A DNA stretch of 64,000 bases, taken from the UHGV virus genome UHGV-1353844; one strand, written 5' to 3'. Of this stretch, positions 39,981-61,549 are shown one piece after another. The position numbers and the translations under genes were made by a program. The stretch is from a virus. Position 1 is the stretch's first letter. Each line of letters opens with the position of its first letter. The notes below the pieces were generated by a model, which saw only the letters and a program-made list of their open reading frames with translations, had not been told where the DNA came from and made no database searches.

Positions 39981-40373
39981 TTATTCAGCGCTACGATTTA
40001 AAGTAATACGGCCAATCAGTTCTGCATTATGGAAGAAGTCCACAGCAGTATAGTTTCCGACCTCTAACGGATGAATACTGACCGACATGACTTTTGGTTG
40101 TTCGCAGGCGATATCCGTCAGACGTTGGTAGACTTGTGCACGGGTGTCGGCAATGAGTAATCCGGTACACGTTTCACCGCGTACTAAGCGATAAACTTGC
40201 AGTTTACCGAAACTGCGCATTAACGTAGGTGACTCGTCCGGGTTGATAATGGGTGAGTCAGGAGCCGGTTCGTAATGGCGGACGTCCGAATCGCCGAAAG
40301 CATAAGTGCCAGTAATACCGATTGCACAGAAAATAATGATGGTATAAAGTATAGTTCTGATATTCATTTTCAC
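39981..40373 (-). CDS. Secreted small protein (130 aa) with signal peptide
   Basis: MKMNIRTILYTIIIFCAIGITGTYA. Confidence 0.5.
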   Translation of the reverse strand: MKMNIRTILYTIIIFCAIGITGTYAFGDSDVRHYEPAPDSPIINPDESPTLMRSFGKLQVYRLVRGETCTGLLIADTRAQVYQRLTDIACEQPKVMSVSIHPLEVGNYTAVDFFHNAELIGRITLNRSAE

Positions 40374-40395: not shown

Positions 40396-40857
40396 TTATT
40401 TGTTAGGACGGGTGTGTCCACAGTTCTGGAAGAAAGTTTCAGATAAACGATCGCCTTCTACGGTAAAGTTAGCGGCATCGTTACCATTGATACTCACACT
40501 GAAAGTTTTGGCATTACCGATAGCATTAACGAAAGCAACCCAAGCGAGTTCTGCTTTGTCACTACCGTCCACGGTAGGGATGTTATAGGTTTTGCCGTTT
40601 ACGACAATATCCATCGTGTTATCTTCAGCGTTAGTTGCACCTACGGGTTCCCCGTAATACCAAACCATCCGACCGTAAAATTTGCGATTCGCAGTTTCAG
40701 TGTCACAGTTGATAGACAGTCCGTTTCCGGCGGTGTCTTCGATTTCGTAAACTACCTGGCCAGGGTTTTGTATTTGTTCCCAGCTATTGATAGCGGCGTG
40801 TGCGCTATTGAGGCCGAAAGTTAAAATGGTTATTAAGAATGTGGTAAAGGTTTTCAT
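40396..40857 (-). CDS. Secreted small protein (153 aa from ATG at 40857; track start 40899)
   Basis: MKTFTTFLITILTFGLNSAHA signal-like N-terminus; AGGAG RBS 7 nt upstream. Confidence 0.5.
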   Translation of the reverse strand: MKTFTTFLITILTFGLNSAHAAINSWEQIQNPGQVVYEIEDTAGNGLSINCDTETANRKFYGRMVWYYGEPVGATNAEDNTMDIVVNGKTYNIPTVDGSDKAELAWVAFVNAIGNAKTFSVSINGNDAANFTVEGDRLSETFFQNCGHTRPNK

Positions 40858-40903
40858 TGAAATGCTCCTTCGGGTTATGGGGAAGTTCCCACAAAACATG
40901 AAA

Positions 40904-41275
40904 TTAAATAACTGTGTTGGGGAATGCTTTAATCTGCGTATAGCTATCTCCGATACCTCTTATCATCTCCAGACGTTCTTCTGTAGAAAGGCTTTGGTTA
41001 ATGTCTTTGTCAAGATTGAACAGTGTCAAGAGTTTTGCAATTGCAACCGTCAGGTTGTCGGACAGCTGGTTGTTTTTACGCCATTCTTCGTTACGGAAAA
41101 TAGAGATAAGGTCTTTCACCTGGCCTTCAGCGTGTGGTTTGGCTAACTGCGCGTCACGCTGTTCGATAAGGTATGCTTCGTTGGCAAGTAAACGTTTCAG
41201 GTCTTCTGGGTTAGTGGCAGCGCGAGTAACGATCAGTAATACAACAAACGGGTCTTTGAACAATTCGCTTTTCAT
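40904..41275 (-). CDS. Hypothetical cytoplasmic protein (123 aa), first gene of the secreted-protein operon
   Basis: ORF with TTTTAGGAG RBS. Confidence 0.5.
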   Translation of the reverse strand: MKSELFKDPFVVLLIVTRAATNPEDLKRLLANEAYLIEQRDAQLAKPHAEGQVKDLISIFRNEEWRKNNQLSDNLTVAIAKLLTLFNLDKDINQSLSTEERLEMIRGIGDSYTQIKAFPNTVI

Positions 41276-41377
41276 CGTTAATACTCCTAAAATGGTTTTA
41301 GTTAAGTGAGAGCTTTTGTACTCTCACCTAAGTAATATATATCTGAGATTATTTTTAATGTTAGAGAACAAAAAAAA

Positions 41378-41397
41378 GGTGGGGTTTACACCCCACC
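41378..41397 (-). terminator. Terminator hairpin (GGTGGGGT-TTACA-CCCCACC) after an A8 tract
   Basis: After end of gene at 41402; coordinates approximate. Confidence 0.55.
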
Positions 41398-41401
41398 GTT
41401 G

Positions 41402-41980
41402 TTAAACGTCGAATCGATACTGACGAGAATTGATTAAGAATTCTGTATTCAGTTCGATCCATTCGAGCAGGTCACCCAATTGTAAACGGCTTGGGTTTTC
41501 TATCTCGATAGTGGCAACCGGATAAGAGTTTACTAATTCCGTAATTGCCTCGATACCTTCTTGCGTTCCATCGTCTTCTAAGGTAATTATAAACGGCATA
41601 TCGGTACGCTCTGCGTTCGGGTTATACAGACTGACTTTCGTTGCCTGTACAAACGCCGAGTAATCGTCACGTATGATCCTAACGTCAGGCGATAACGTTA
41701 CCCAGAGGTGTTGTCCCGGTTGGAGTTTACGTTTTGCGTAGTTTAAGAACGGATTAGCCGGTAAGTTTTCCAAACCACTGCAAATGTTCCGTAAATGAAT
41801 TCCTCGCGGATCTTTATAGTCCACAGTGAAAATTCCTACCGGCTCACGGTCTGCCTGTTTTACCAGAAAGGCCAATACCGTGTCCGCTCTCTCTGGTAAG
41901 GAAAGCTCTATTCCCTCAAGCTCCCCATCGACGAGGTTTTCCAACCAAACGTCTTTTCTCATTTCTATTAATCGGTACAC
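41402..41980 (-). CDS. Hypothetical protein (192 aa)
   Basis: ORF. Confidence 0.5.
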   Translation of the reverse strand: MYRLIEMRKDVWLENLVDGELEGIELSLPERADTVLAFLVKQADREPVGIFTVDYKDPRGIHLRNICSGLENLPANPFLNYAKRKLQPGQHLWVTLSPDVRIIRDDYSAFVQATKVSLYNPNAERTDMPFIITLEDDGTQEGIEAITELVNSYPVATIEIENPSRLQLGDLLEWIELNTEFLINSRQYRFDV

Positions 41981-41992
41981 GGTACCACCTCT

Positions 41993-42766
41993 TTAGTTAT
42001 TGAGATTTACATCTGCGATAAACAGCAATTGTTTGCCGTGCTGCTGTACTTCTTTCCAACCTAACTTCATAGCAGTATCAACAACATCAACCATGCTGTA
42101 ACGGGACATCAAAGATTCTGATTTTGTTCCTGACATTAAGTAAAGTGGCTCATTAGGGCTACGGTCACGTGCGTCAGGAAGTTCACGTACGACTGCCGAG
42201 CCTTCGGGTGCGGTAACAACATGAATCACGGTAAATGGCCTCTTGTGCGTTAAATAGATACGAAATCCAACGTGTTCAGATTCATGAAAGATTTTCTTCA
42301 CAATCACATCTTTCAGTGTTGTTTGAACATCAGCCCCAGGCGATATCATAGACTTGCTGGAAACGAAGCAACGACTATTTTCAATCGTGGAGAAATAATT
42401 ACGTATCGGCAAACTGGCGTTATGATCGCGCAGTTTTTTGCTCAGTAGATCGAAGTTCAGTTCTTTAACTTTTTCTAACCACTCTTTGGCCTGTTGAATG
42501 TAATAACTACCAACAGCGCGATAAGTTAATACTTTACCTGTGCTCACTTTCCAAAGCTTGATGGTTAGTGAGTTTGGCTTATAGCGACGATACTCACCCC
42601 GCGTATGGTTGATGCGCTCGTAGCGCTCTACATCGTTAATCGGTGCAGATTCGACCGATTGTAATTGCAACGTTCGATCTAGTCTATCGGCAAATAGTAG
42701 CGACGTTAGCGGGCCTTCGATCATATACGGTTCGGTTTTAAAGATATCGTCTAAATGGACTTTCAT
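41993..42766 (-). CDS. Hypothetical protein (257 aa); member of a family with conserved C-terminal GWKxV...GxQLLFxAD motif
   Basis: C-terminus KLGWKEVQQHGKQLLFIADVNLNN. Confidence 0.5.
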   Translation of the reverse strand: MKVHLDDIFKTEPYMIEGPLTSLLFADRLDRTLQLQSVESAPINDVERYERINHTRGEYRRYKPNSLTIKLWKVSTGKVLTYRAVGSYYIQQAKEWLEKVKELNFDLLSKKLRDHNASLPIRNYFSTIENSRCFVSSKSMISPGADVQTTLKDVIVKKIFHESEHVGFRIYLTHKRPFTVIHVVTAPEGSAVVRELPDARDRSPNEPLYLMSGTKSESLMSRYSMVDVVDTAMKLGWKEVQQHGKQLLFIADVNLNN

Positions 42767-42788
42767 TTCTATTTCCTTCTTAACAAAA

Positions 42789-42807
42789 GCCGCGACTAAA
42801 GCGCGGC
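42789..42807 (-). terminator. Terminator hairpin (GCCGCG-ACTAAA-GCGCGGC)
   Basis: After end of gene at 42834; coordinates approximate. Confidence 0.45.
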
Positions 42808-42833
42808 AGTTAGAGAAAGTGTATTTTCACTTA

Positions 42834-43985
42834 TTAAAGGTCAGCAACAAACAGCAGCTGACTGCCGTACGGTTCGACAGATTTCCAACCGTAATCTTTA
42901 CCGATCGTCGTTAAATGGCCGGTATTTAACTTTTTGTCAACCATCCGCAGACGCATCATTAGCGTATTGGATTCTGCCGCATCGAGTAACAACGCAGGTT
43001 CTTTTTCAGTGCGGTCATCCGCTTTCGGGAAGAAACTGTAATATTGACTTTTGGGCAGATCGATTGACAACGTATAATTTTTCTTTGTAACGAATAACGC
43101 CATCCCTTCGAAATTGCAATCGAAACGATATTCCCAACCCGCTTCTGCTAAAACGTCTTTTAGCATTTCCATGACTTTAAGCTGGTTAACGCTGGGCAGT
43201 CGGTAGATTGCAAGACCACTTGGGAAAATGCGTATACCGTCGACGACACTATCGGTGGTCTCGTCAATAAGTTCAGGATAGCGTTGTGAGAAAATGTGTT
43301 CGCTCTTGCTTTTCTCTTCGACGTCACGAATGAATTGGGCTAATTCGTCTCTTAAGGCAGACATTTGATTTTCTCCTTTGTCTTCAATAATCAGGTGGGG
43401 TTCGCCGCTAATTAAAATGTGGTAAACGAGATCGTCGGTAGAACGGTAAGTGAGCTTGATAGCTTTATCACTTAACATTTCGTAGCGGAAGAAACTTTCG
43501 TACCAGGTCGAGCCGAAATCGTTTCGTGTGAGTTCCTGCTCAACTTTGATGGTTTTTGCTTCAAAACCAATTAACCCACTTAATAACGCGAGTTCTGGTT
43601 TAGTTAAAATAGCTGCACCGTGAAAGGACACTTGCTCAAGCTGAAAACATAAACTACTGACTTTACCGCTTGGGAAGACCTTAAACATAATCTTCCGGCC
43701 GCTACTCTTTTCTCTAACAACGAGTTTACGGTAATTTAGTCCAGAATTTGTGTAAACCTCGAACTGGTAACCTTCAATTTCTTCATCGTAAGTACAGACA
43801 TCGACAGGCGCGATAATCTCATCGTATTCACTCAGTACACAGCAGCCCAAGTTATAACCAAACAACTCGCGTTGTAATGAAGACTCGATGGTTAAGCTTG
43901 GCAGAGGCCAAGTCTGATTATAGCATCTGTCCATCAGTTCTTTTAGGATCTTGACATGTCCTGGTTTAGAAATAATATTTCGCAT
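42834..43985 (-). CDS. Hypothetical protein (383 aa); same C-terminal motif family
   Basis: C-terminus KDYGWKSVEPYGSQLLFVADL. Confidence 0.5.
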   Translation of the reverse strand: MRNIISKPGHVKILKELMDRCYNQTWPLPSLTIESSLQRELFGYNLGCCVLSEYDEIIAPVDVCTYDEEIEGYQFEVYTNSGLNYRKLVVREKSSGRKIMFKVFPSGKVSSLCFQLEQVSFHGAAILTKPELALLSGLIGFEAKTIKVEQELTRNDFGSTWYESFFRYEMLSDKAIKLTYRSTDDLVYHILISGEPHLIIEDKGENQMSALRDELAQFIRDVEEKSKSEHIFSQRYPELIDETTDSVVDGIRIFPSGLAIYRLPSVNQLKVMEMLKDVLAEAGWEYRFDCNFEGMALFVTKKNYTLSIDLPKSQYYSFFPKADDRTEKEPALLLDAAESNTLMMRLRMVDKKLNTGHLTTIGKDYGWKSVEPYGSQLLFVADL

Positions 43986-44014
43986 TTTTACTCTCCTTTA
44001 GGGTTGTTCGTTAC

Positions 44015-44572
44015 TTAAACGTTATAAGCTAAGAACAACAGTTGCTGACCGAGTTTGCGCACTGTATGCCAACCGTGTGCTTTTGCTGTCCCTACCAATG
44101 TTTCCCAGTCATCAATATCACAACCGTCCTTTTTCAGTTCTGTAAGTAGTGCCTCTGCTTCTTTATCTGTTAGTAGTATTCCTGGGTTACTTAACGTACA
44201 CGTAAGTGGGTTAGGGAAATATGCGTAGCGTCTTGCGAAAGTAAAGTTCACGAGATAACGTGCATCTCCTCTGTCTAGAAGGGTAATAACATTGCCACCG
44301 TAGAACGCACTCGTTACTTTCCATCCGGTACCGGAAAACAGATGACGGAATATTTCGGTAAAACTATCTCCGACACTATGATAATTAAGTCGTGAGAAAC
44401 GGCGTTCCCAAACCACAGCATCTCCATCAAATTCTTCAACTTGAAGACCGGTAATCATTGTACCTGGCCGGATAACGTTAGACTGTATAACGCAAGGATA
44501 ATCAAGTTGGTGTTTACCTGCACCCAGCTTAACAAACTCAATAGCTTGTTGTTTCATTTCGATAGTAATCAT
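44015..44572 (-). CDS. Hypothetical protein (185 aa); same C-terminal motif family
   Basis: C-terminus KAHGWHTVRKLGQQLLFLAYNV. Confidence 0.5.
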   Translation of the reverse strand: MITIEMKQQAIEFVKLGAGKHQLDYPCVIQSNVIRPGTMITGLQVEEFDGDAVVWERRFSRLNYHSVGDSFTEIFRHLFSGTGWKVTSAFYGGNVITLLDRGDARYLVNFTFARRYAYFPNPLTCTLSNPGILLTDKEAEALLTELKKDGCDIDDWETLVGTAKAHGWHTVRKLGQQLLFLAYNV

Positions 44573-44748
44573 GATATATTCTCCTAAAATGGAATAAGGG
44601 AGTCACTACGTTCCTCTGGGAAGAGTATGTCGGTATACTACGTATACCTCCGCTATTTATATCCGTATACATATTGCCCCCTACCCCCTACCGGTATCCC
44701 GAGTAGCAGAATAAAGGGACAATCTGTAAATTTTAAGTAATACTATGA

Positions 44749-44826
44749 TTACCGAGGAATAGCCGGGTTGTAGCGTTTGAACAGTACGATGACTTCGTCC
44801 AATCCGCTTTTCTTCTCAGTAGACAT
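44749..44826 (-). CDS. Possible tiny ORF (25 aa, MSTEKKSGLDEVIVLFKRYNPAIPR) in a long intergenic region
   Basis: AGGAG RBS 8 nt upstream of ATG; otherwise unsupported. Confidence 0.15.
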   Translation of the reverse strand: MSTEKKSGLDEVIVLFKRYNPAIPR

Positions 44827-44878: not shown

Positions 44879-44905
44879 AGGGGCTGAAGTGCGAGTTCAG
44901 CCCCT
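44879..44905. other. Perfect 10-bp inverted repeat (AGGGGCTGAA-GTGCGAG-TTCAGCCCCT) in divergent intergenic region
   Basis: Seen directly; function unknown (terminator or regulatory stem-loop); coordinates approximate. Confidence 0.4.
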
Positions 44906-44958
44906 ATTCACTTAAGTAAAATATATCTGAATTCATTTCCGATCTAAGGAACGACCTA

Positions 44959-46380: not shown

Positions 46381-47859
46381 TTATTTTTTTCTTGCACGGA
46401 AACGATGCATTTCCAAATAGACTTTTTCCCAGGGACCGAAAGGTCCTACGATTGCCTGTGCATCGTTAATTTTCTTCTGGTTATACCAACGGGCCTCACG
46501 GAACACGTAGTTTTGACTGTCGAATTCCGTGGTGTTAAATACCCATTCCCCTTCTTCCCACGTCGGCCAATAAGCAACGGTTTTACCGAAGCGGTTTAAC
46601 AGATAGCCCAGCTGTTTTTCCCCATCAGGGTCATTAGGATCTTTAAGGTATAAACGTCCCCAGATAGCGTTGTGAGAAACCCCCACAACTTCTTCTTCCA
46701 GATACGGATTATCCACCGTAAAGATAAACGACGACTCGTGGGTTAAAAGCGCCTTTAATGTTTCTGGGTTGCGGATACGCTGTACGCTGGTCGGGGATGA
46801 CAGATCGCCAACACCGATGCTATCCCAGTCGTAATAACGTCGGGTTTCTAACACAGTACGCGCAACGTCAAAGTTCGGTAACGAGACCATAATGGCTTTG
46901 TCGGAGAAGTACCCAGTAACCGGTAACCAGTGTATCAGACCCCCGATAACAAACCCCACGGTTTTACCCGTAATAGATTCCGGTAAAGAAATCATTAACG
47001 TGGAATAATAGTCACGGGTGGTGTCGAGTTTGTTTAGGGTCAAGTTAGCAATGGGGTACGTTTTAACATTCCCCAATTTACTAAAGACCATGCAGCCGAT
47101 ATCCGGTGTCCCTGCACGACGTACTATCTTACCCGCGCCCGGTAAACGTACACCAACTGTATCCGACTGATGTGGTACCCATTGACCGTTGATGTTGTAC
47201 AACACCCCGTTACGGTATTTGTCTTTCCATTTATCTTCGCAAACAATCACAACGTCGTCAGCATCGTCTATACTGAAATCTTGACTGTAATGGTAACCGG
47301 GAGGACACAGGTAGGTTTCTACTGGAACATCGGCATTAATCGATTGGTAGTGTGCCCAATCAAACTCTAACGTCGGTAAACCGTCTTTCAACGCAGAGAT
47401 AACCACACCGGCTTTTTCATTCAGCCAGTCTTGTAACGTATCGGTACGGTTTTGTAAGTCAGCGAGGTGATATTGGCTAATTAACGTATAGTCTTTACCA
47501 AGCGCACTCAGACCGACTTCGAAAATATGGTAATCAGAACACAAGGTTTCTAAGGGTTGCGTGACGTCGATGGCTCCCCAGGTACGGGTCTCTCGAGAGA
47601 AGCCAAAAGCGCTGTCAGGCCGCACTTGATAAGCAGTAGTCACAGCTCTTTTCCTCAATAGATTCAAGTCATAGTATGAACTCGACGCCCACGGACTATA
47701 GGAGTAGATAATGGCTGTCGTCCTAGACCCACACTTCAAAGAACCGGGGAATAAAATAACCGGTGAAGCGGTCGCCGTCATTGGTACGAAGTACCGAATG
47801 TTGGTACCTGCCCACGCCCCTTTTTTCACCACATCCCTGGTGGTCAAGAGCGGCGGCAA
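46381..47859 (-). CDS. Hypothetical protein (up to 492 aa) on the minus strand at the head of the tail-fibre block; start uncertain (track start is TTG; first ATG at 47781 has no clear RBS)
   Basis: Long ORF filling 46381-47710 where no + strand ORF exists; 5' end overlaps the divergent start of the 1440-aa gene. Confidence 0.45.
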   Translation of the reverse strand: MPPLLTTRDVVKKGAWAGTNIRYFVPMTATASPVILFPGSLKCGSRTTAIIYSYSPWASSSYYDLNLLRKRAVTTAYQVRPDSAFGFSRETRTWGAIDVTQPLETLCSDYHIFEVGLSALGKDYTLISQYHLADLQNRTDTLQDWLNEKAGVVISALKDGLPTLEFDWAHYQSINADVPVETYLCPPGYHYSQDFSIDDADDVVIVCEDKWKDKYRNGVLYNINGQWVPHQSDTVGVRLPGAGKIVRRAGTPDIGCMVFSKLGNVKTYPIANLTLNKLDTTRDYYSTLMISLPESITGKTVGFVIGGLIHWLPVTGYFSDKAIMVSLPNFDVARTVLETRRYYDWDSIGVGDLSSPTSVQRIRNPETLKALLTHESSFIFTVDNPYLEEEVVGVSHNAIWGRLYLKDPNDPDGEKQLGYLLNRFGKTVAYWPTWEEGEWVFNTTEFDSQNYVFREARWYNQKKINDAQAIVGPFGPWEKVYLEMHRFRARKK

Positions 47860-50800
47860 AATACTGACCTTAGGCGACGATTACGTTATTACACACCCGT
47901 ACGAGACCGGTATGTTGCGCACAGCCTATCTCGTGCACGGGATGATTTGGATTGTTAATGACAAATACAAATCGAATTTCACGGTAGATTACCACGCCGT
48001 AGGTTGTGGTGAAGCGACCCAAGAACAGATTACCGCAGAACGCGAACTCAATAAAGATAAATACCCGTCTGCGTGTCAATGGGATACCGTTATCGGCGAA
48101 GTTTACTTTCCACCGGTCGATATTCAGTTCGACTGGGAAAACTGGAAAGGTGAACTGGAATTAATGCAGGCCATTGCAGGCTTAGGTGATTCGTTAGGTA
48201 ACGTGGTGAATCGGGTAGACCCGATTGCACGTAACACGTTAGATATCGAGCATCGTGCTAATGGTACGGTTATCACGTCTGAACAGTACGCAACGTACGA
48301 CAACAAAGGTGGGTATACTTACAATACCGCTAAACGCCGTTTCTCCGTTACGTACAAAACCACCACGTTAAATGAATATTCCCTGTCGATGAAATACCGT
48401 ATTCCGGCTATTTTTCCGAATATGGGGAGTATTAATCCGAACGAACAAATCGATTGGATGTTGTGCTACGCGAACGGTGGCGCAAGTATCCTTCGTCTCC
48501 AATTAAAACAACGTAAAATCAGCCTACGACTGACAGTTGCGTTAGGCAGTGGTTCGACCGATTATGATTATACGTTAATCAACGGTTTGACCGACGATGA
48601 ATTAAAAGGCGAATTAACGTTTAGCGTTGTTCGTCAACCGGGTAACGGTGTATACGTTATCGAGGTGACGACTAACAAACAGTCCATGGACTACACCTTT
48701 AACGTTGACACACCGCCAGACGAATTCTCAGCAGGTTACACCAAAACGGATGTTGCGAAGTGGCTGAAGTACAAAACCAACGTTAACTTAAACTGGTGGG
48801 CGGCTGAGAACGATTATGCTCAATTCCTTGCGTTACCTGGTGCGCCAGAAGCAGACGTAAGTAACGACGTTTATCAGTTAATCGTTAAGTACCATCAGTT
48901 AGTAGAACAGCTCTATCGCAACGCGCCTGCGCACGAACACGTCACCCGTAAGGATAACCCACACGCTGACACCTGGGGTCCGATTCGTGCGTTAGAATTA
49001 AACGGCATTGCATCCGACGCAGCATTAGCCTACGGGAAAACTAAGGAGCAATTAACCGATTACGTAAACGCTAAGTACCCAACGCAGGCAACGTTAACCG
49101 CCCAGAAAAAACTGCTTCGTGAATCAGCGAGCAAGAACGTTAACGGCACGATTACAACGCTCCCCGGCTTTACGTCATTTACTACTGAAGTCGACCCAGT
49201 GTCGATGTCGAAGTACGTGAGTCCTTATTTTAGTGAAAGCTATGTTAGTAGTGGCCACAGATATCACGGTGCGCTTCGTTATACAGGAACGAAAAGCGGT
49301 TTCAGTGCTAACTTTAATGCGGTACCTGCCAACCTGCAAGATATTGACTTTATTGTTACCGGACGTAAAACAGCGTCTGGTAATGAAGCGGTCGGTAGGG
49401 TTGGTTTTCGTTTCTACGAAAATCCCGGTAGTAACTCCGGTAAGTACGTAGAGATTACCGGTGAAGTCTGGTCCGGTACTCTTACTATCGAACTGGCGTT
49501 GCACGGTTACGGTAGTCCTGTACCGGCAGTTCGGTATATTTCGCAAGCTCCTAATCCGGCAATACCGGATGGGGATTTTACGCTACGTTTTCAACTGAAG
49601 CGTACAGGGAATGTGTTTGACGTCGTTATTACCGTAAACAGTAAAACGTATAGCGGTCGGATTAACTTCAATAACATGGACGCTGCGTTAGAAGCATTAG
49701 AGAATCAGCACCACTTTAAATCGCTGATCAATAATGTTGCTGACGGCGTCAATATTAGTTCGCAAAACAAAGGTAACACGGTTACCATTAAGAAAGCACC
49801 TGGCGTTGTTGACGAGAGACGTTTAGGTGCTCAGTTTGTCGTTGATCCGAAATCCATTAAGTTCATCGGTCAAGGTTCTACTGACGTTAACGTGGGTAAC
49901 AACCCGGTAACGTTGCAAGCGGGAGATAACCAGCTTGTGCTATATCCTGATGACCGTGGATTACTGTGGCGCGGTAAGAAACTCTTAGACCCCACTACGG
50001 TAGCGCCGTATTTGCCGGGCAATACCGCAGGCGGTACGGGATTATTCTACGGTGCAACTACAGCTACAGTGGAACTTACGGGTAGCGGGATTAAAGCGTC
50101 GCCGTTTGTCGCAACGTTTATTCTTCCGGTTGCCGAAGACGTTACTACGTTAGCGTGTTGGCAGTTAACGGACGAATTCGGTACGGCTGAAAACCTCGCA
50201 GCAACCCCTGCGTTAATTGAAAAACTGGACGCAGAGTTTACCGGTAAGTTAGTTGCCGCCAAGTCGTACATCAACGACATGCAGCTTACCAGTTCGGTTA
50301 CTATCGACAAAATTACCTTTGGTTTAGGTAACGTTGCGAATACCCCGGACGTTGACTTACCGATTTCTGTTGCACAGCAGACCGAGCTGGACAAATACTC
50401 ACCGAAGGTTCACCAACACCCGTCTTCCGTATTCGGTGTTGCGAACGCAGACACCACGAAACGGGGCCTGATTAAATTCGGTCTGGAAGTGGATGATGCC
50501 ACTTTAGCGCTCGACGGTAGTGTGGTGATGGCGCAGACTTCCCAGATTGAAGATTTGGAGAATACCGTCGGCGGGGTTGACTCGGGTGCGCGCGTTGACA
50601 TTATTCGCTTTGGTAAGTCCGGTAACGACCTAATTGACGTTACGGTTAAAGACAAAATCCTAGTGACACTTCCTGCTTCCACGTATTTCGTTGGCGGCGA
50701 AACGTACGACGTGCCGTTGATGTCGGTTAACGTCACTGAACGTTTCCCGAATCTGAATAAGGAAATTTACGCAGGGATTTTTGTTGACATTGTCGATAAC

Positions 50801-52033
50801 AAAGCGAAGTACATTATTCACGACAGCTACAGTCAGGCTGAAACGGATACCATGACGCGCGTGGGTCTAATCGGTATTAACGACCTTTCTGAAGTGTTCG
50901 TTACTGAACTACGTAACGTGACACGGTTAGGCGATTTCCGTGAGCTGAAAGACCACGTCGCCAATGATAACGCACACATTCAGCGTTCTGCTTCACGTGC
51001 AGTGCTGGGGTTAAGCAATTTAACAGTAGGTGCGCCCTGCTGGGCTTCTGGACTTCAAGCGGTTGTGCGTGGCGAAGCAGACTGGCGTTATGTGGTTGGC
51101 GGTGGATATAAAGCACTCGATGGTGTGAAATACGACCAGCTTGCGTCGAAGTGGGTGTTTGATGCAAAAGGGGTAAGTGATAACGTTCACGGGTTTATCC
51201 ACAACCTGTTCCCGGTATTTAACAATGCGGGGATGCGAGTCAGTTGGGAAACCGAAAGCAACGCAAAAACCGGAACGGTGCTAGAAACCATCCTGGCTTG
51301 CTGGAAAAATACCGAAGACGAGTTTATGCGGTTGTCGTTACTTATCACCCGTGGTTATCGTTTAACCGACAGTAACGGTGAGTATTGTTACGCCGGGTTT
51401 GGTTTAAACTTCGGTAACGGGAAATCCGTGGTGTTAGGTTTCACGCCGACCAAACGCGTTACCCCAGCACCGTGGAGTACGTTACATCCTGACGTATCAT
51501 TTACCCACACGCGTGGTGCGAATAACGAATTAACGTTTAACGCAACGCTGACCTTAGCAGGTACTGTTTACACTATTGTGGTGTATTTGTCTGCGGCAGA
51601 TAAATACGTAAGCTGTACGGCGGCAGGTGGTACTACGCAGAAAATCTCGCTGACCGACCGTTTAACTGGGTTCAACCTCGCGCCTATCGTTAACGATCCG
51701 TACACCCCTATTTACTACGGTTTAGGGGGACTTTATGAGGACGAAGTGCGTGCTAATATCCGTTCTACGACAGACAGCATAACCGGGAACAAACTCTACG
51801 GTACGCTGTTGGATTATATCAGCAACTACTCCTCGTTAAATCGTGTACGCGTCATGGAATTGGCCGGGACAAGCTCAGACCCTGAAACGCTTAATGCGCT
51901 AGTGGCAACCGAGTTTAATAACAGCCTGGCGGATTACGCTGCGTTACCGATACCTCCTTATCTTAACAAGGAGCGCGTAATGTCGTTTATCGACACCAAC
52001 AATAAAGTGCAGGCGGTAATCATTCGCGATTAA
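47711..52033 (+). CDS. Tail fibre protein (1440 aa) with T7 gp17-like N-terminal attachment domain
   Basis: N-terminal pattern RMLVPAHAPFFTTSLVV...LGDDYVI shared with the three following genes and resembling recalled T7 gp17 (NIPFEYLARKFVVVTL...TDYRF); AGGAG RBS. Confidence 0.6.
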   Translation: MAVVLDPHFKEPGNKITGEAVAVIGTKYRMLVPAHAPFFTTSLVVKSGGKILTLGDDYVITHPYETGMLRTAYLVHGMIWIVNDKYKSNFTVDYHAVGCGEATQEQITAERELNKDKYPSACQWDTVIGEVYFPPVDIQFDWENWKGELELMQAIAGLGDSLGNVVNRVDPIARNTLDIEHRANGTVITSEQYATYDNKGGYTYNTAKRRFSVTYKTTTLNEYSLSMKYRIPAIFPNMGSINPNEQIDWMLCYANGGASILRLQLKQRKISLRLTVALGSGSTDYDYTLINGLTDDELKGELTFSVVRQPGNGVYVIEVTTNKQSMDYTFNVDTPPDEFSAGYTKTDVAKWLKYKTNVNLNWWAAENDYAQFLALPGAPEADVSNDVYQLIVKYHQLVEQLYRNAPAHEHVTRKDNPHADTWGPIRALELNGIASDAALAYGKTKEQLTDYVNAKYPTQATLTAQKKLLRESASKNVNGTITTLPGFTSFTTEVDPVSMSKYVSPYFSESYVSSGHRYHGALRYTGTKSGFSANFNAVPANLQDIDFIVTGRKTASGNEAVGRVGFRFYENPGSNSGKYVEITGEVWSGTLTIELALHGYGSPVPAVRYISQAPNPAIPDGDFTLRFQLKRTGNVFDVVITVNSKTYSGRINFNNMDAALEALENQHHFKSLINNVADGVNISSQNKGNTVTIKKAPGVVDERRLGAQFVVDPKSIKFIGQGSTDVNVGNNPVTLQAGDNQLVLYPDDRGLLWRGKKLLDPTTVAPYLPGNTAGGTGLFYGATTATVELTGSGIKASPFVATFILPVAEDVTTLACWQLTDEFGTAENLAATPALIEKLDAEFTGKLVAAKSYINDMQLTSSVTIDKITFGLGNVANTPDVDLPISVAQQTELDKYSPKVHQHPSSVFGVANADTTKRGLIKFGLEVDDATLALDGSVVMAQTSQIEDLENTVGGVDSGARVDIIRFGKSGNDLIDVTVKDKILVTLPASTYFVGGETYDVPLMSVNVTERFPNLNKEIYAGIFVDIVDNKAKYIIHDSYSQAETDTMTRVGLIGINDLSEVFVTELRNVTRLGDFRELKDHVANDNAHIQRSASRAVLGLSNLTVGAPCWASGLQAVVRGEADWRYVVGGGYKALDGVKYDQLASKWVFDAKGVSDNVHGFIHNLFPVFNNAGMRVSWETESNAKTGTVLETILACWKNTEDEFMRLSLLITRGYRLTDSNGEYCYAGFGLNFGNGKSVVLGFTPTKRVTPAPWSTLHPDVSFTHTRGANNELTFNATLTLAGTVYTIVVYLSAADKYVSCTAAGGTTQKISLTDRLTGFNLAPIVNDPYTPIYYGLGGLYEDEVRANIRSTTDSITGNKLYGTLLDYISNYSSLNRVRVMELAGTSSDPETLNALVATEFNNSLADYAALPIPPYLNKERVMSFIDTNNKVQAVIIRD

Positions 52034-52043
52034 GGAGAATTTT

Positions 52044-55000
52044 TTGATGAAAGCGTATCCTTACGATCCTCGGGGGACGAAAACCGAGAATCACTTCTTA
52101 GAGGAGCGTATCATCGGGTCAGAAAACAACAACGACCGGGTGGTGATTTTAGACCATCGCCCGTTCTTTGAAGACTTAGTCGTCAGACAACCAGGTTCAA
52201 CCACCCCACTGAGCCGTGGGGTGGATTACGAACTGCAATATCAGCTGACGGAACTGGATGACTCGGTAGCAGCCAACGTGTATTGTGGGGTACACCTTAT
52301 CAACCCATCCATCAAAGGCATTGTAACCTTTGAAGGGCAAATGCTCGGCGGTACGTTCTACGACCCGTTCGTTGACATGCTCGACGAGCTGGTGAAATAT
52401 TTGAATAACCCGGTCAGTGCAGACTGGCTGTTGTTAGACGGTAGACCGTCGTTATACCCGGCTACGCCAGCGGCAACGTCCTGGGCGGACTTGCTGAACA
52501 AAAAATATTTAGCGTCAGCGATTCACGATATCGAGCTGAAAACCGATGATGCTAACCAGCTAATTAAAGATAAATTAGCCGAAGTTAAAGCGCTAGTGGC
52601 TGCGTTGGGGAAAGAAATCGAAGCGTTTAACTACCCAGCACATATCGCCGCGACGAACCCGCACGAAACCACGAGCGCACAAATTAATGCCCATCCCGTT
52701 AACCTGAAAACACCTGACACCTTTATGGCGTACGGGTTAAAATTAAAAGCGTTAACGGAAGAACTGAAAGCGTTTCGTTTACCACAGTCAGTTATTGACA
52801 CGTATATCTCCCACTGGATTTCTTCGGAAGTACGGGGCGTGTTTAACTGTACGGTGTCTGGAAACCGCGCACAGTTCCGTTCGAAAAATGGTGAGTCCGA
52901 AATCATTTTTGCGAATGATGGCTTTACGTTAAAATCCAACGGTTCTGTGGTATTGGCGGTAGGGCATCTGGAAGGCACAGGTGCGGGACGTTACATTAAC
53001 TGGCGTGCGGGTAAAAACACCTTACGTATCGAGTCAACCGGTGACGCTTTAGGGATGAACAAACTCACTCTGAACGGTAACCCGTTGTTGACCACCACAG
53101 CGCTGATGGAGTATCAGCAAGACCCTGATGCTGGCGGGAGTGGCGGTAGCGATCCTGATGACTCCAAAGTGTATATCGAAGGCCGTAACGGGATTAGTTT
53201 TACCGGTAAAGGTTCTCGTGCCGATCCTATCGTGGGGACTATCGACCCGACGAAAGCGACCACCGCTGAAAAAGGTGTTGTTAAACTTAAAACCGGTAAA
53301 GGCACAGAAACGGTTGGGGTTGCTGCAACCCCTGCGTCATTAACGCCGTATTCAACCGACTTATCAGGGTACGTGACTAAAACGACCATGATTAACGGTA
53401 AACCGATGAACGACGGTTCCAGGACAATCACAAAAGCTGACCTGGGATTAGGGCAAGCGGATAACACCGCAGACCTCGACAAACCGTTGTCAACCGCACT
53501 GAATGCTTCGGTTAGTGGTTTAGCAGACGTCGGACACCATCACGACTGGTCAGAGTTAGGCATTTATAAAGCCTCGCAGTCGATTTACGGCATCGGTCGT
53601 TACGCAACTAACCAGAACGGCTTAGTTGAAAACCGTGCGGTGGTACCGAACATCTTAAAAGAGCTTTCAGCCCGTTTAGATGTGGTGGCTGCTGCAATTG
53701 CAAACGCGAAAGAAGGCACGGTAACTGATTTTGCTGCTGTGAAAGGTGCAGACTGGCGCTTTAATAGCCAGGGTACGTCAATCTCCGTTCAGGATTTGAA
53801 ATATTTCTATTTGCTGGACGGGACGAAAGGCGACAGCACCGTTACTGGTGCGATTGACCTGCAAACCACCCCGATGTTTAACTGGTTCTCACCGAATAAC
53901 CAGCTTGAACTGACCTGGCCTACGGGTAAGGTGAGTAACGGTACGGGAATCAACTGGACGGGTATTGAAGAACCGCCGTTGATGGGGTTCCAGTCTGTCC
54001 CGGTAGGTAAAACTGCTACACAGATGGGTGACCAGTCAGTCGTTACGGTTCTGGCAAAAACGCGTGTAAGGGCGTACCAATCGAAGCTCTGGGTTTATGC
54101 CGCAGGGGGCGGACCGGTAACCGTTTATATCAACGGTAACCTAGCAGCTTCAGGCGAATCTCCACTCGTTGCAGTGTATGAAACGTCAGCAGACGTTGAA
54201 AACTACACGATTGCGGTTAAAGCTGAATGTAGTGACACGGCTAAGTCCGCAGCGGTACAGTTTGAAGTTTACGATGGGGATTACCCTGTTTACTTCAGTG
54301 GCCCTGAAACGCGCGTAGAGCTTCTCCAGGAGTTTGTTACCACGCACGTAGGGATTCGTCACTATCTGTACGTTAACATGCTCACAGGCTCTCTGTATTC
54401 GCGTGCTGAACCGATTCAGAGCATCGCAGTTGATCCTGAACGTGGTTATATCGGTTACGTTGATATTGTTGCTGGTGAGAATTACGCGAATAAAACGGTA
54501 GGGTTCGAAACCACGTTTGATTTCGGGAAAAGTGCCGAGGTTAGTGAACACATCGACACGCGTAAAGCACACGGACTCAGTTCTGTGGACTGGGCGTTAA
54601 CGGATAACCCACGTTTGCCGTTATTAAACCGTGCTATTGCCGAACCAAGAGCGTGTATCTTTAGGAAAGCGTTAACAGCCGGAACAGGTGATGTTTTCCA
54701 TCTTGTCAGTCGCGGTCTTTATACTTACGCACACAACCAAAACGTGAAGTCCAGTCTTCAGTACGTTGTGATGCCTGAAGGTGCTACACCGTATTGCTGG
54801 TTTACACCGTTTAACCCGAAAGAAAACAACGCACCGACGTTCGAAGGTTCGTTTGCATTCGATGTTGACGACGTCGGTGGAACACAAGCACTTACTGCCG
54901 CACCAGATTTGGTGCTATGTACGTCAACGCAAGGGGCGAGTGTTAAACGTCGTTATGTACGTATTGACCTGACGGACAAAGCGTGTAAGTTGGGGATTGG

Positions 55001-56228
55001 TTCCCGTTCAGTTTCAGACGTTACTGACATTCCGTTGGTAATGGAAGAGTCTGGGGAAACAGCGGTGAATGCAACGTTTAAGGACGTGTTGTTCAACGGT
55101 GAAGAAACCAACCCCGCGATTCTCGATTTGATTGGCTGGGGTGCCACCCGAGATAAAATCTCTGCAAACCATGCACCTCGTGGGATGATTCGTTACCGTT
55201 ATAACGTAAGTACGCGTGTGTTACGTTTAGCGTTGTCGTTCTCGCAGTTTGGGACGACGACAGTTAAACAACGTCAATTGGAGATTCAATTCCCGTTTGA
55301 CTTGGTGGATTATTTCACCGGTGACGGAATAGGGTTGTCGTTTAAAGAACTGAGCGCGAAATGCCGAGTAACAATTAGCCACGCACTGATTGATCCGGTT
55401 ACGAACAACATCGACATTGATAAGTATCATTACTTACGTTCGTTGTTTGAGTCGTATTTGGATTCATCCGTTGGGTATTTGGCTGATAACAAAGACGCTG
55501 ATTATAGTCAGTCTGTGATTGACCCTGCGACTTATGAGATTAGTCAAAAATACCGTGCCACGGAGAGCATTGCCTTGCCAACTGGTCAGGGAAACGTTGC
55601 GGTTTCTCACGATGGGCAGTTACCTGCGCAGTTCTTTGATCGTAAGCTGTCTCGCGGTGCGCTGATGGCGAAGAAAAACGAACTGCATACTTCCTGGAAC
55701 AACGAGTGGAGTACGACTAAGGCTGCTGCAAGTCGTTATCGTCACAAACTCATTCTCCGTTTTGCACAAGGTGCCGATAAACAACAGTACCGAATTGCAA
55801 AAGTGTCAGGAACGATAAAAAGTAACTGGCCAGGTAAGGTGATTATCGGCGACGCAGGGAAAGACCCATTCTTAGCGTCTACTGATAGCGCAGAGTTTGC
55901 TCTGTCAACCAGTGCTGACGTAGGTAAAGCGATTAGTATCACGGCCACCGACTTACGTGTAGGTCAGGACATCTATATTGTCTTAGACCCGCCGGGTGAT
56001 AATCCCGAAGGTTACGAGCTTAACTTTACCTGTTCGTTAGACGTGACTGATGAGCAAAGCACTCGTCAGGATCAGCTTAATGCGCAGAGCTTCGAACTGC
56101 GTAGCGGTGAAAAGCAGTTCTTAATGGAGAAACGCAATCCGTACCATATCACGAGTAAAGCGTGGAAATGGATACTTTCTGTACTGAAACGTGAACTTAA
56201 CGGGAAGCAGTTAGGGGATCGTACTTAG
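52044..56228 (+). CDS. Tail fibre protein (1394 aa; probable ATG start at 52047) with T7 gp17-like N-terminal domain
   Basis: RVVILDHRPFFEDLVV...RGVDYEL; TAAGGAG RBS; fibre-like TKATTAEKGVVKLKTG and HHH motifs. Confidence 0.6.
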   Translation: MMKAYPYDPRGTKTENHFLEERIIGSENNNDRVVILDHRPFFEDLVVRQPGSTTPLSRGVDYELQYQLTELDDSVAANVYCGVHLINPSIKGIVTFEGQMLGGTFYDPFVDMLDELVKYLNNPVSADWLLLDGRPSLYPATPAATSWADLLNKKYLASAIHDIELKTDDANQLIKDKLAEVKALVAALGKEIEAFNYPAHIAATNPHETTSAQINAHPVNLKTPDTFMAYGLKLKALTEELKAFRLPQSVIDTYISHWISSEVRGVFNCTVSGNRAQFRSKNGESEIIFANDGFTLKSNGSVVLAVGHLEGTGAGRYINWRAGKNTLRIESTGDALGMNKLTLNGNPLLTTTALMEYQQDPDAGGSGGSDPDDSKVYIEGRNGISFTGKGSRADPIVGTIDPTKATTAEKGVVKLKTGKGTETVGVAATPASLTPYSTDLSGYVTKTTMINGKPMNDGSRTITKADLGLGQADNTADLDKPLSTALNASVSGLADVGHHHDWSELGIYKASQSIYGIGRYATNQNGLVENRAVVPNILKELSARLDVVAAAIANAKEGTVTDFAAVKGADWRFNSQGTSISVQDLKYFYLLDGTKGDSTVTGAIDLQTTPMFNWFSPNNQLELTWPTGKVSNGTGINWTGIEEPPLMGFQSVPVGKTATQMGDQSVVTVLAKTRVRAYQSKLWVYAAGGGPVTVYINGNLAASGESPLVAVYETSADVENYTIAVKAECSDTAKSAAVQFEVYDGDYPVYFSGPETRVELLQEFVTTHVGIRHYLYVNMLTGSLYSRAEPIQSIAVDPERGYIGYVDIVAGENYANKTVGFETTFDFGKSAEVSEHIDTRKAHGLSSVDWALTDNPRLPLLNRAIAEPRACIFRKALTAGTGDVFHLVSRGLYTYAHNQNVKSSLQYVVMPEGATPYCWFTPFNPKENNAPTFEGSFAFDVDDVGGTQALTAAPDLVLCTSTQGASVKRRYVRIDLTDKACKLGIGSRSVSDVTDIPLVMEESGETAVNATFKDVLFNGEETNPAILDLIGWGATRDKISANHAPRGMIRYRYNVSTRVLRLALSFSQFGTTTVKQRQLEIQFPFDLVDYFTGDGIGLSFKELSAKCRVTISHALIDPVTNNIDIDKYHYLRSLFESYLDSSVGYLADNKDADYSQSVIDPATYEISQKYRATESIALPTGQGNVAVSHDGQLPAQFFDRKLSRGALMAKKNELHTSWNNEWSTTKAAASRYRHKLILRFAQGADKQQYRIAKVSGTIKSNWPGKVIIGDAGKDPFLASTDSAEFALSTSADVGKAISITATDLRVGQDIYIVLDPPGDNPEGYELNFTCSLDVTDEQSTRQDQLNAQSFELRSGEKQFLMEKRNPYHITSKAWKWILSVLKRELNGKQLGDRT

Positions 56229-56322: not shown

Positions 56323-59300
56323 ATGCCGAGAGAAGACGCGGCGCAGTTTAACGGTACGCTAAGCACAGCGACGTACCCTAACCGATTTAACGTGGTCATT
56401 CCGCCTGAAGGACCTTTTTATCGTATCGGATTAAAACTCACAGTAGCCGACGATACCGCGCCTAACGGACGTCGTACTCTGATTGAGGGGTTGGACTACT
56501 ATTTAGGCTATTACTTTAAAGAACTCGCAGAAGCTGAACAAGATCAGATTTACGGCGGGTTTATGTTGCTTACTGCAACAGAAATCGAATATGAGATTTT
56601 AGGGGTAGCACGTCAATACCGTGTACCGCAATCTGAAATCGGGAAGTTCTTAGTTCGTACTGACCTGAAAGACCCACGTAACGTGGACTGGTCTGAACTA
56701 ATGGCGTATGCGCCGGTTATTCAGCCTATCGACCCGCCTGCTAACTTAGAAGAAGCGATTCTGAGGGATGAGGTTGTTAAGGCGTTAGAAGACATTCGCA
56801 AGAAAATCATCAAACGTTCTACGGAATTAGATGCTGCGTTCAGTGAAGTCACTAACTTGATTTACGAGAACGGTAAAAAGGTTTTCGACGAAGAGTTATA
56901 CCAGCATCACCGTAACCCTAACGCGCATCATTATACCACTGATGACATTGCTGCTCTCCCGGTATTAGGTCGTGCTGTTGACGCTACAAAAGCGTTTGGG
57001 TTGACGATTGACGAGTTGGCTACGCTGATGGGTTCAGCGGGTATTGAGCAATCGGACGTTGACCAGTTAATGGGTGAAGCCCTCGGCACCGTTTACGGTC
57101 GATGGGGTACCACGAACGGTAATGAATTAACGTTTAAAACGTCAGGTGGCCACATCATCAGTATTCGTGGTGATAAGTGGTTAATTACCTCGCCACAACC
57201 GTTGGTGATTAAAGCAGACCAGGACAACAACGAATCGGGTTTAGCGGTTGAATTCAGTGCGGGTCTGAATACGCTTTGGGTTCACTCGGGGTCGGAACAG
57301 GACGTATTAGCGCCAGTTTATAACTCCGTGTACCTGGTTACACCAGAAATGGTGAACATGTATCTGACGTCAGTAACGTTGCTTGAAGCAAACGCGTATT
57401 TCAAAGCGTCAGACACTGTAAAACCGTACGGTACCGCAAAACAGACTAACCCGGTTACGTTAAACGCGAATATTCCCACGGCGTCCGAATCAGTTTATGG
57501 GTTGTTCTCGATTACGAATATCTCTACGTCTGCGGCGTTAGGTACTGCTATCTCCCAGAAAGCTGTAACAGAATTAAAAGACCGCTTGGACTTGTACGTT
57601 GACGATGACTATACCGTTAACGGTAAAGGGTTTGTTAAAACAGGCGACAATATGGTGTTAACCTTAACGAAAACCGATTTCGGTATCGATAAGATGGATA
57701 ACACCATACCGAGTGATAAGCCTGTGACAAAAGCGTTAACGAACGTGTTGAAAAACAAGAGTTTGAAAACGCACACCCACACCACTGCTGACTTGGATAA
57801 CGTCCCGATTGGTAGTGCAACGGTTGACGGTATCTTACAGCTCTGGGATGCAATTGACACCACTAACGATAAAGCTGTCACGTCGCGTCAAGGCTGGTTG
57901 TTCGCAAAAGAGATTAAGAAGGTCTCTGATAAACTGAATACCATCTTACCGGCGTGGACGGTAGGTGGAGCGAAATTCGGTAACAAGAACTTCTTACCTA
58001 TCCCAGCGTTAGGTAACTACGCAGGCTATACCAAAAACCAGTCCTACCAGAAAGGGGTTGTTGGGTATCAGCAGGGTAAGGTTTATTCGCTCCGTAACGG
58101 TTCTAACGGCGTGCCGGGTACGGAAGCTATTTATTACGGCTATGCTGACATTGACACGTCAAACGCGTTTGTAAATCCGCAGCAGACCTCAGTGAAATAT
58201 CACCCTGCCGGGATGAGTAAATATCCTGGGGTGACCCTAATAGCGATATTGATCGGTGGCCAGGAAGCGATTATTTGCCTGGGTTCTGACAATAACCGTT
58301 ATTTGGTGCTGTTTAATGGCTCGATGGACCACACTAAGCACACGGTGGTATGTCGCGTTACGATGCCCGTGTACCGTAACGGCAACCCCAGTGGTACTGT
58401 GGAACAAACCTGGAACCCGTGGCCGGAAGCTGACGATGTCGTGTTGGTTGAGGACTACGTTTATCTTCTCCGTTCAACGGTAAATAACTCCGCTTACGCC
58501 GTAGCAGCTTGGCGTCTACGTAAGGCCGATTTGTCTACTAACACTACGTTAGAATTTGAACGTGTAACTCTAACCGGCGAGATGGGACAATTCGGAGATA
58601 ACCTCTGCTTGCGTATTGGTCAGAAAACCGAAGAGTCGCAAACGGGTCAATTCTTTACATATCTCACACCGGAGGGTCGTGCTAAATGGACGATCGGGCG
58701 TAACTTTGTTCACGGTCCAGAATGTAACCACGCGTGTGCTGTGCGCGATAGCGTGATTCGTGTGAACCATATGCCTACCGTGTGGTTTGCAGCGGCCGAC
58801 GGTACGACGATTAATTTCCTTCAATGGGCAACAAGTTTTACAATCGATACGTTGACGGGCAAGGTTACGTTAGAAGGCCGCGAACGCTTCCCCATCAAGG
58901 CTGATGCTACTACTACACTCTCGTTCGCAGATGGTTCAACTGTAGGAACCAATCGTAAGTGGGGTGGTGGCCAGGCAAACAACCGTTGTTTCGCGACGTA
59001 TGCTAAACCCAACGGTACAGGAATGATGCTTTCCTGTTGGCAAATTGCCGATGCGGACCAAATGCCTAATGTTTCTATTAAGAGTACACAAGGCAGAGAG
59101 CTTTTCGATTATCTGCGTTACGATAACCCAAACAACACCTCGGGCGAAGGAACGTTTACCTGGGATAAAGGCCGTGGCTCCATTTACACCATCGGTTTGT
59201 CTTATCCAGTAGGGATTGGTGGTTCGAATAAGGTCTGGTTATCGAACCCTCGTAACCGTTACACGATCGAAGTGGAAGTTGATCCGAACAAACCTTACGA

Positions 59301-61509: not shown

Positions 61510-61549
61510 TGACTCGAGACAAGGACGTCTCGAATAAAGGAGAGTGGCC

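Follow-up and report, generated by a model that had tools for sequence, protein, structure and literature searches.

The window analysed here is a stretch of 64,000 nucleotides (nt) of the virus genome UHGV-1353844. Between its positions 41,993 and 44,572 lies an array of three neighbouring genes, whose products of 185, 383 and 257 amino acids (aa) end in a common C-terminal module (Table 1). A first-pass annotation had described the three proteins as sharing their last 25 residues behind unrelated-looking N-terminal regions; the genes are found where it placed them and the C-terminal strings it quoted are present. In pairwise BLASTP the expect (E) value was 1e-11 for the 257-aa and 383-aa proteins (38% identity over 65 residues), 2e-8 for the 383-aa and 185-aa proteins (similarity about 110 residues long) and 3e-5 for the 257-aa and 185-aa proteins, and the C-terminal similarity is therefore not due to chance. 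Only its length had been underestimated, since these alignments show a shared region of about 60-70 residues rather than 25. The module opens with a second conserved block that the first-pass annotation had missed, P-D-x-x-D-R-S/T-x-N-E/D-P-x-Y-L-M (...L-P-D-A-R-D-R-S-P-N-E-P-L-Y-L-M-S...), and the copy in the 185-aa protein is a degenerate variant without the polar D-R-T motif (FPNPLTCTLSNPGILL...GWHTVRKLGQQLLFLA). A six-frame scan with a hidden Markov model (HMM) found exactly three copies of the module in the window.

Table 1. Coordinates of the module array, its regulatory features and the corresponding loci in relatives
Feature	Coordinates or location	Strand	Basis and remarks
Gene 1 of array, 185 aa, isoelectric point (pI) 6.2	44015..44572	-	Open reading frame (ORF) list; AGGAG ribosome-binding site 8 nt upstream
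Gene 2 of array, 383 aa, pI 5.2	42834..43985	-	ORF list; GGAGAG ribosome-binding site
Gene 3 of array, 257 aa, pI 9.2	41993..42766	-	ORF list; GAAGGA ribosome-binding site
Module of 185-aa protein, residues ~115-185	44018..44230	-	HMM match, E 5e-20; alignments
Module of 383-aa protein, residues ~317-383	42837..43037	-	HMM match, E 1e-18
Module of 257-aa protein, residues ~193-257	41996..42190	-	HMM match, E 4e-21; copy used for AlphaFold2
Promoter-like 23-nt motif TCAGATATATTTTACTTAAGTGA	44908..44930	-	335 nt upstream of 185-aa gene
Second copy of 23-nt promoter-like motif	41324..41346	-	Directly after terminator-like hairpin 41378..41397; start of next transcription unit
Terminator-like hairpin GCCGCGC...CGCGGC, then TTTTG, between genes 2 and 3	42789..42807	-	Consensus scan
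Strong terminator-like hairpin GGTGGGGT gtaa ACCCCACC, then T8	41378..41397	-	Consensus scan; end of putative operon
Conserved non-coding element upstream of gene 1	44625..44692	-	G5-TA-G5 box (GGGGG-TA-GGGGG) 44677-44688; 7-bp hairpin 44632-44648
192-aa gene, phrog_20879, unknown function	41402..41980	-	ORF list; PHROG match, E 8e-32
Regions differing between window and contig L003	Window 40870-41319, 44373-44576; L003 8999-9945, 13008-13039		
Motif copies in relatives	L001 9640; L015 7698; L002 6144; L013 3990; L008 5237 and 8304; L014 5241		
Syntenic equivalents of array	SPN3US gp175; Phobos gp176; CR5_165; pEa_SNUABM_29 gene 258; Huxley gp185-187; ChrisDB gp196-197		
Block with stand-alone module gene, Shewanella SXP01-like lineage	L007 943-1203; L010 3146-3418; L012 8637-9209		

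No mutual similarity among the N-terminal parts of the three proteins was detectable by pairwise BLASTP, which upholds the earlier description of a shared module on otherwise dissimilar proteins, and these parts matched nothing known in Pfam, PHROG, PDB, PADLOC or NCBIfam; the 'effector-like' character that had been ascribed to them is putative. As judged from sequence, the three genes are best explained as tandem paralogues of a gene family seen only in jumbo phages. Internal repeats of a diverged 'helix-G-W-hairpin' unit were considered and rejected, the hhalign probability being 3.9% (P 0.011) for what precedes the module in the 185-aa and 383-aa proteins and 0.35% for the N-termini of the Derbicus-type subfamily.

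The module copies of the window were combined with a few relatives into a profile, which in a comparison with 1.84 billion representative proteins matched 67 representatives with E <= 1e-3, 24 of them with E <= 1e-10 and the best relatives with E 3e-28. About 65 of the 67 matches are genuine, and two long repeat proteins are evident false positives. The consensus reads h-P-D-x-x-D-R-[ST]-x-N-[DE]-P-x-Y-L-M-S-x-x-x-V-x-x-L in its first part and continues, after a variable stretch that in some members is 10 to more than 50 residues longer, with a helix ending A-x-x-x-G-W-x-x-V-x-x-x-G-x-Q-L-L-F-x-A. The module usually forms the C-terminus of proteins of 185-534 aa, stand-alone module proteins of 72-130 aa are frequent, and an N-terminal position is rare (PhiEaH1 gp105 and P0056). 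In tblastn searches with three different members the matches among sequenced phages were confined to jumbo phages of 218-270 kb, namely Seoulvirus (SPN3US-like), Derbicusvirus, Machinavirus, Cronobacter CR5, Iapetusvirus PhiEaH1 and Shewanella SXP01. At full length, the 383-aa and 185-aa proteins have next to no tblastn match among the sequenced phages. A word-indexed homologue search returned 4-7 proteins per query, several of them partial, and a structure search of viral models (BFVD) returned 17 uncharacterised jumbo-phage proteins, several of which appear from their accession prefixes to belong to one phage.

Conservation in other phages, which the first-pass annotation had treated as decisive for its proposal, was found in SPN3US gp175, Phobos gp176, CR5_165 and Huxley gp185-187. 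The PHROG families 26772, 33648, 24489 and 18480, which include the first three of these and Huxley gp185, four proteins encoded at the same syntenic position as the array, carry the module at the C-terminus; all four are unannotated and thus give no functional information. The window proteins differ from these families in that the alignment covers only their last ~60-85 residues and leaves out the N-terminal 130-300. The 257-aa and 383-aa proteins matched the C-termini of PHROG profiles only (positions ~290-371 or 340-412) and not their full length, the matches of the 257-aa protein being limited to its last ~60 residues, and the 185-aa protein had no PHROG match. The domain family is real and previously undescribed in curated resources, the proteins themselves being already present in PHROGs as families of unknown function.

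The AlphaFold2 model of the module, built with a 44-sequence alignment, had a mean predicted local distance difference test score (pLDDT) of 94.5 and a predicted template modelling score of 0.81. An ordered N-terminal loop with the conserved P-D-x-x-D-R-S/T-x-N-D/E-P motif precedes a strand (19-22), two helices (24-33 and 36-45) and a beta-hairpin (strands 48-54 and 57-62). The full-length model of the 185-aa protein (pLDDT 82.6) shows two successive units of one helix and three strands followed by the module. As modelled, the module folds autonomously, as a domain of about 65 residues found also alone and occasionally at the N-terminus, and the earlier idea of a short tag or peptide is to be given up. 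Nor is it part of a single known globular domain among those searched: no Pfam, NCBIfam or PADLOC model significantly matched any member, the sole PADLOC match being a non-significant one to DpdF in the N-terminal part of the 383-aa protein (E 9e-4, 15.8 bits), and profile and full-length searches of PDB sequences gave nothing significant (best E 0.2, a protein called 'N5').

The topology of the module, strand-helix-helix-hairpin after an extended loop, equals that of a winged helix minus its first helix, and the module could accordingly be imagined as a nucleic-acid-binding domain of phage regulators or DNA-associated factors. For one stand-alone member Pfam gave a match to the winged helix of TBPIP/Hop2 that falls below its cut-off (E 0.0087), and in a scan of ~47 proteins about one match as weak as this would arise by chance; weak BFVD matches were to RepL and replisome-organiser proteins. 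None of these similarities is strong, however, and likeness to the winged-helix domains of Hop2/TBPIP, RepE and Stn1 was not significant in sequence or in fold; the first helix of the canonical order H1-S1-H2-H3-S2-W1-S3 is absent from the model. The module is moreover neutral to acidic (net charge median 0, range -7 to +3; median pI 6.2), and its second helix, the equivalent of the recognition helix, is poorly conserved. The winged-helix similarities are for these two reasons taken as topological only, and a role in nucleic-acid binding is considered quite unlikely; that the module does not look like a typical nucleic-acid binder is counted in favour of the protein-protein interface proposed below. 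Class I S-adenosylmethionine (SAM)-dependent methyltransferases are resembled only in the C-terminal beta5-alphaE-beta6-beta7 fragment of their seven-stranded Rossmann fold, whereas the module is free-standing and without SAM-binding motifs, and the full-length model of the 185-aa protein contains no Rossmann fold.

The metagenomic contig L003, ~95% identical to the window over the array region, allowed a close comparison of the 257-aa and 383-aa genes, the 185-aa gene being left out owing to a 2-residue indel. The ratio of non-synonymous to synonymous substitution rates (dN/dS) was 0.06 in the 257-aa and 0.26 in the 383-aa gene, and all 29.5 non-synonymous changes of the latter fell outside the module. 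The modules of both genes showed no non-synonymous and 4-5 synonymous changes. The long N-terminal regions also evolve under purifying selection (dN/dS 0.08-0.29, the upper value being that of the 383-aa gene) and are therefore more than mere appendages. Over a wider distance, 11 representatives of the Derbicus-type subfamily had a median identity of 83% in the module and 25% in the remainder, with partial, mosaic BLAST relations among their N-termini. Strong purifying selection acts on the module, whose conservation far exceeds that of the remainder of each protein.

Such a pattern could also arise if the conserved C-terminus had no common function and were simply the slowest-evolving structural core of an old, rapidly diverging family. 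The N-termini of the Derbicus-type proteins are still detectably homologous to one another, so that at least part of what appears as a variable N-terminus reflects divergence and not domain swapping, and the conserved residues are mainly hydrophobic or structural. Against this, the module is found alone and at the N-terminus of another protein, and the N-termini of 70 to 470 residues to which it is fused have no detectable similarity between subfamilies; these observations indicate a mobile, self-sufficient unit and leave the slow-core explanation decidedly unlikely.

Gene content at the locus changes readily. The syntenic position holds one module copy in SPN3US, pEa29, Phobos and CR5, two in ChrisDB and three in Huxley and the window. 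Relative to the window, L003 carries an additional gene of 245 aa, and in its orthologue of the 185-aa gene the N-terminus is replaced or diverged and an in-frame stop codon interrupts the sequence; the window in turn has an additional 123-aa gene (40904-41275, phrog_27024), and the indel boundary at 41319/41320 abuts the second copy of the promoter-like motif. The 245-aa gene of L003 ends '...MRGWGCAEITKDYLLLIKTA', which resembles a degenerate module, but since the HMM misses it no fourth paralogue is claimed. The locus shows the pattern of a fast-turnover accessory locus in which a small domain is the constrained part.

Stand-alone module genes were found on contigs of up to 230 kb, in accessory gene blocks. 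In the Shewanella SXP01-like lineage such a gene stands in a conserved block with genes for a Tad2-like protein (anti-Thoeris family), a ~190-aa protein and a glutaredoxin, and another copy (L005) lies near NADAR and dUTPase genes. One may ask from this whether the module is itself the active part, binding and inhibiting or hijacking one highly conserved host protein, with the N-terminal regions as accessories. That many members consist of the module alone, that stand-alone copies lie in accessory blocks beside Tad2-like and NADAR genes, and that phages of different hosts (Erwinia, Salmonella, Cronobacter and Shewanella) have kept the module all agree with this. It is nevertheless unlikely, as no anti-defence or defence model was matched, the synteny with neighbouring genes is restricted to one phage lineage, and the N-terminal regions are themselves constrained to the extent given above.

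An AT-rich 23-nt motif, TCAGATATAT[A/T]TTACTTA[A/G]GTGA, occurs in exactly two copies in the window and not at all in shuffled sequences; both stand between genes, on the gene strand, and the 185-aa gene is the first long gene downstream of the copy that precedes the array. In extended form the motif hardly varies among six phages of three genera (SPN3US, Derbicus and Machina groups), in which it stands ahead of the module arrays or within them, again intergenic and always on the strand of the downstream genes. The early promoters of jumbo phages that encode their own RNA polymerases have been described as ~10 highly conserved AT-rich nt near position -10 (review, PMC7598289), and because it fits this description the motif is likely to be an early promoter for the virion RNA polymerase. 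A literature search on the promoter core TATATTAC retrieved no relevant papers. The terminator-like hairpin between genes 2 and 3 is weak evidence, the regional count of such sites not exceeding the shuffled expectation. The 192-aa gene, whose SPN3US homologue lies two genes downstream of gp175, is probably co-transcribed with the array, since it follows it directly and lies ahead of the strong terminator-like hairpin. The 185-aa, 383-aa, 257-aa and 192-aa genes would then form one early transcription unit, from promoter motif to terminator.

Between the baseplate gene and the array lies the non-coding element of Table 1, which is conserved in SPN3US, pEa_SNUABM_29 and Huxley and has no Rfam match. 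Its hairpin had 96% of cells paired and two pairs with compensatory changes, and the observed score was reached by 7 of 500 shuffles; the stem variants in four phages are GGTATAC/GTATACC, GGTATCC/GGATACC, GGTACCC/GGGTACC and GGTAGC/GCTACC. Each motif copy of the window is also followed by a hairpin, at 44880-44904 and, as GTGAGAG...CTCTCAC, near 41300-41325. The stretch from the promoter-like motif to the 185-aa gene also holds a putative ORF of 25 codons, MSTEKKSGLDEVIVLFKRYNPAIPR (44749-44826, minus strand), which has a GGAG ribosome-binding site; the counterpart position in SPN3US is taken by the 105-aa gene gp174.

Among 50,697 phage records no close relative of the window was found, the sole megablast match being 42 bases in Escherichia phage EC001, and it is gene content and order that match the window to the SPN3US group of jumbo phages. 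The region encodes a baseplate assembly protein, huge paralogous virion proteins, an SbcC/SMC-like protein, a UvsX-like recombinase, RNase H and thymidylate synthase, and the module genes open a block divergent from the baseplate assembly gene, a position that is conserved. Loading into virions, which had been offered in the first-pass annotation as one use of the shared C-terminus and would resemble the action of the capsid-targeting sequences of phage internal proteins, gains some plausibility from the baseplate and structural genes that the array adjoins and from the many proteins, large paralogue families included, that SPN3US-like heads package (PMC5105663). The virion mass-spectrometry table of SPN3US lists gp171 and gp173 and then gp193, however, and the absence of gp175 (PMC5105663 supplement) argues against such a tag for the only orthologue with data. 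The array moreover lies on the strand opposite the structural genes and behind an early-type motif, and the module is a folded C-terminal domain and no short cleavable N-terminal peptide, found also alone and in non-structural gene blocks. Virion loading is therefore judged most improbable, and the array genes presumably encode non-virion accessory proteins.

SPN3US encodes a chimallin homologue (PMC9365700), and the SPN3US group is for that reason regarded as nucleus-forming. In PhiKZ, the import factor Imp1 recognises folded surfaces and not linear signals (bioRxiv 10.1101/2024.03.27.586873). A folded domain common to diverse proteins and met only in jumbo phages would fit a localisation or import-licensing role, by which variable cargo would be brought to the shell of the phage nucleus or through its import machinery. 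On the other hand, none of the searches made detected the module in PhiKZ-type or Goslar-type phages, and stand-alone modules would have no cargo, so that such a role is held to be very unlikely.

The explanation preferred here, tentatively and with somewhat less than even confidence, is that the module is a shared protein-protein interface, for docking or oligomerisation, on variable accessory proteins. The conserved domain would dock onto one conserved phage or host partner, or drive homo- or hetero-oligomerisation, and the variable N-terminal regions would supply changing specificities, in an adaptor-like architecture typical of host-takeover or counter-defence proteins. Binding to one common partner, the other use suggested in the first-pass annotation, may thus apply, and the accessory-block setting of the stand-alone copies is counted in favour of the interface. 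A common interface is the most economical reading of a small conserved domain that also occurs alone, is joined to hypervariable mosaic regions, is present in several paralogues and belongs to proteins that are probably early and non-virion. Several points weigh against it. The early timing of the array is read from a sequence motif, and the absence from virions covers the SPN3US orthologue in one supplementary table. The most conserved residues (P, L, G-W and G-x-Q-L-L-F) look structural, and their conservation is therefore in itself no proof of an interface. The polar D-R-T-x-N-D motif is lost in the 185-aa lineage, which would not share the partner if this were the binding site. Beyond lineage-level synteny, no partner gene was found that neighbours the module in all lineages. 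A bolder proposal, which must be rated improbable, makes the module a folded 'address' domain of nucleus-forming jumbo phages, docking or licensing a changing N-terminal repertoire to one conserved machine; were it true, this machine might be the phage-nucleus shell, its import apparatus or a conserved host complex, and the arrays would be an arms-race adaptor family.

Two fragments were found in bacterial assemblies. One, a partial protein in an E. coli assembly (P0002), matches the 383-aa protein exactly, at the module, over all 79 residues of the fragment, and the other, a partial protein in an Enterobacter quasiroggenkampii assembly, is 91% identical to the 257-aa protein. Both lie on tiny contigs, and the sequence matches suggest a host range and a carry-over of phage DNA into those assemblies. 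Elsewhere in the window, four consecutive virion-protein genes on the plus strand (47711-52033, 52044-56228, 56323-61509 and 61544-62749; 1440, 1394, 1728 and 401 aa) have overlapping PHROG matches (phrog_2163, 7557, 8078 and 7449) and form a tandem paralogue family of baseplate or fibre type like the gp168-170 family of SPN3US. Downstream of the array, in the same block of small unknown genes, two small proteins (40396-40899 and 39981-40373, minus strand) have hydrophobic, signal-peptide-like N-termini and are possibly secreted or located in a membrane; the first has an L003 orthologue with a Pfam match to YfjT.

Most jumbo-phage genes are without known function, and a compact, confidently modelled domain offers a concrete experimental handle. 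With the 65 residues as bait the attachment partner of the module could be revealed, and with the variable regions their targets. Should the partner belong to the phage nucleus or to a host defence pathway, the family would represent naturally occurring adaptors; otherwise it is still a clean new domain family for databases. For SPN3US-like phages, the promoter-like motif and the covarying hairpin upstream provide regulatory elements that can be tested. The structural and evolutionary description of the module is well supported and its functional reading is not; the domain is a solid, well-delimited lead, not surprising in itself without a partner or activity.

Among known systems, the capsid-targeting sequences of phage internal proteins (the IP family of T4) are short, N-terminal and cleaved by the prohead protease, and the proteins that carry them are found in virions. 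The module is like them in concept, as a sequence shared by otherwise different proteins, but differs in being a folded domain of ~65 residues at the C-terminus and in that the SPN3US orthologue is absent from the virion table. Similar in architecture are adaptor families such as the F-box proteins, in which a small conserved domain is likewise joined to a hypervariable remainder, each genome holds several paralogues and genes turn over rapidly; they have no homology to the module, and the likeness is one of architecture alone. Variable phage accessory proteins with a domain in common are familiar as a kind; the domain itself is new.

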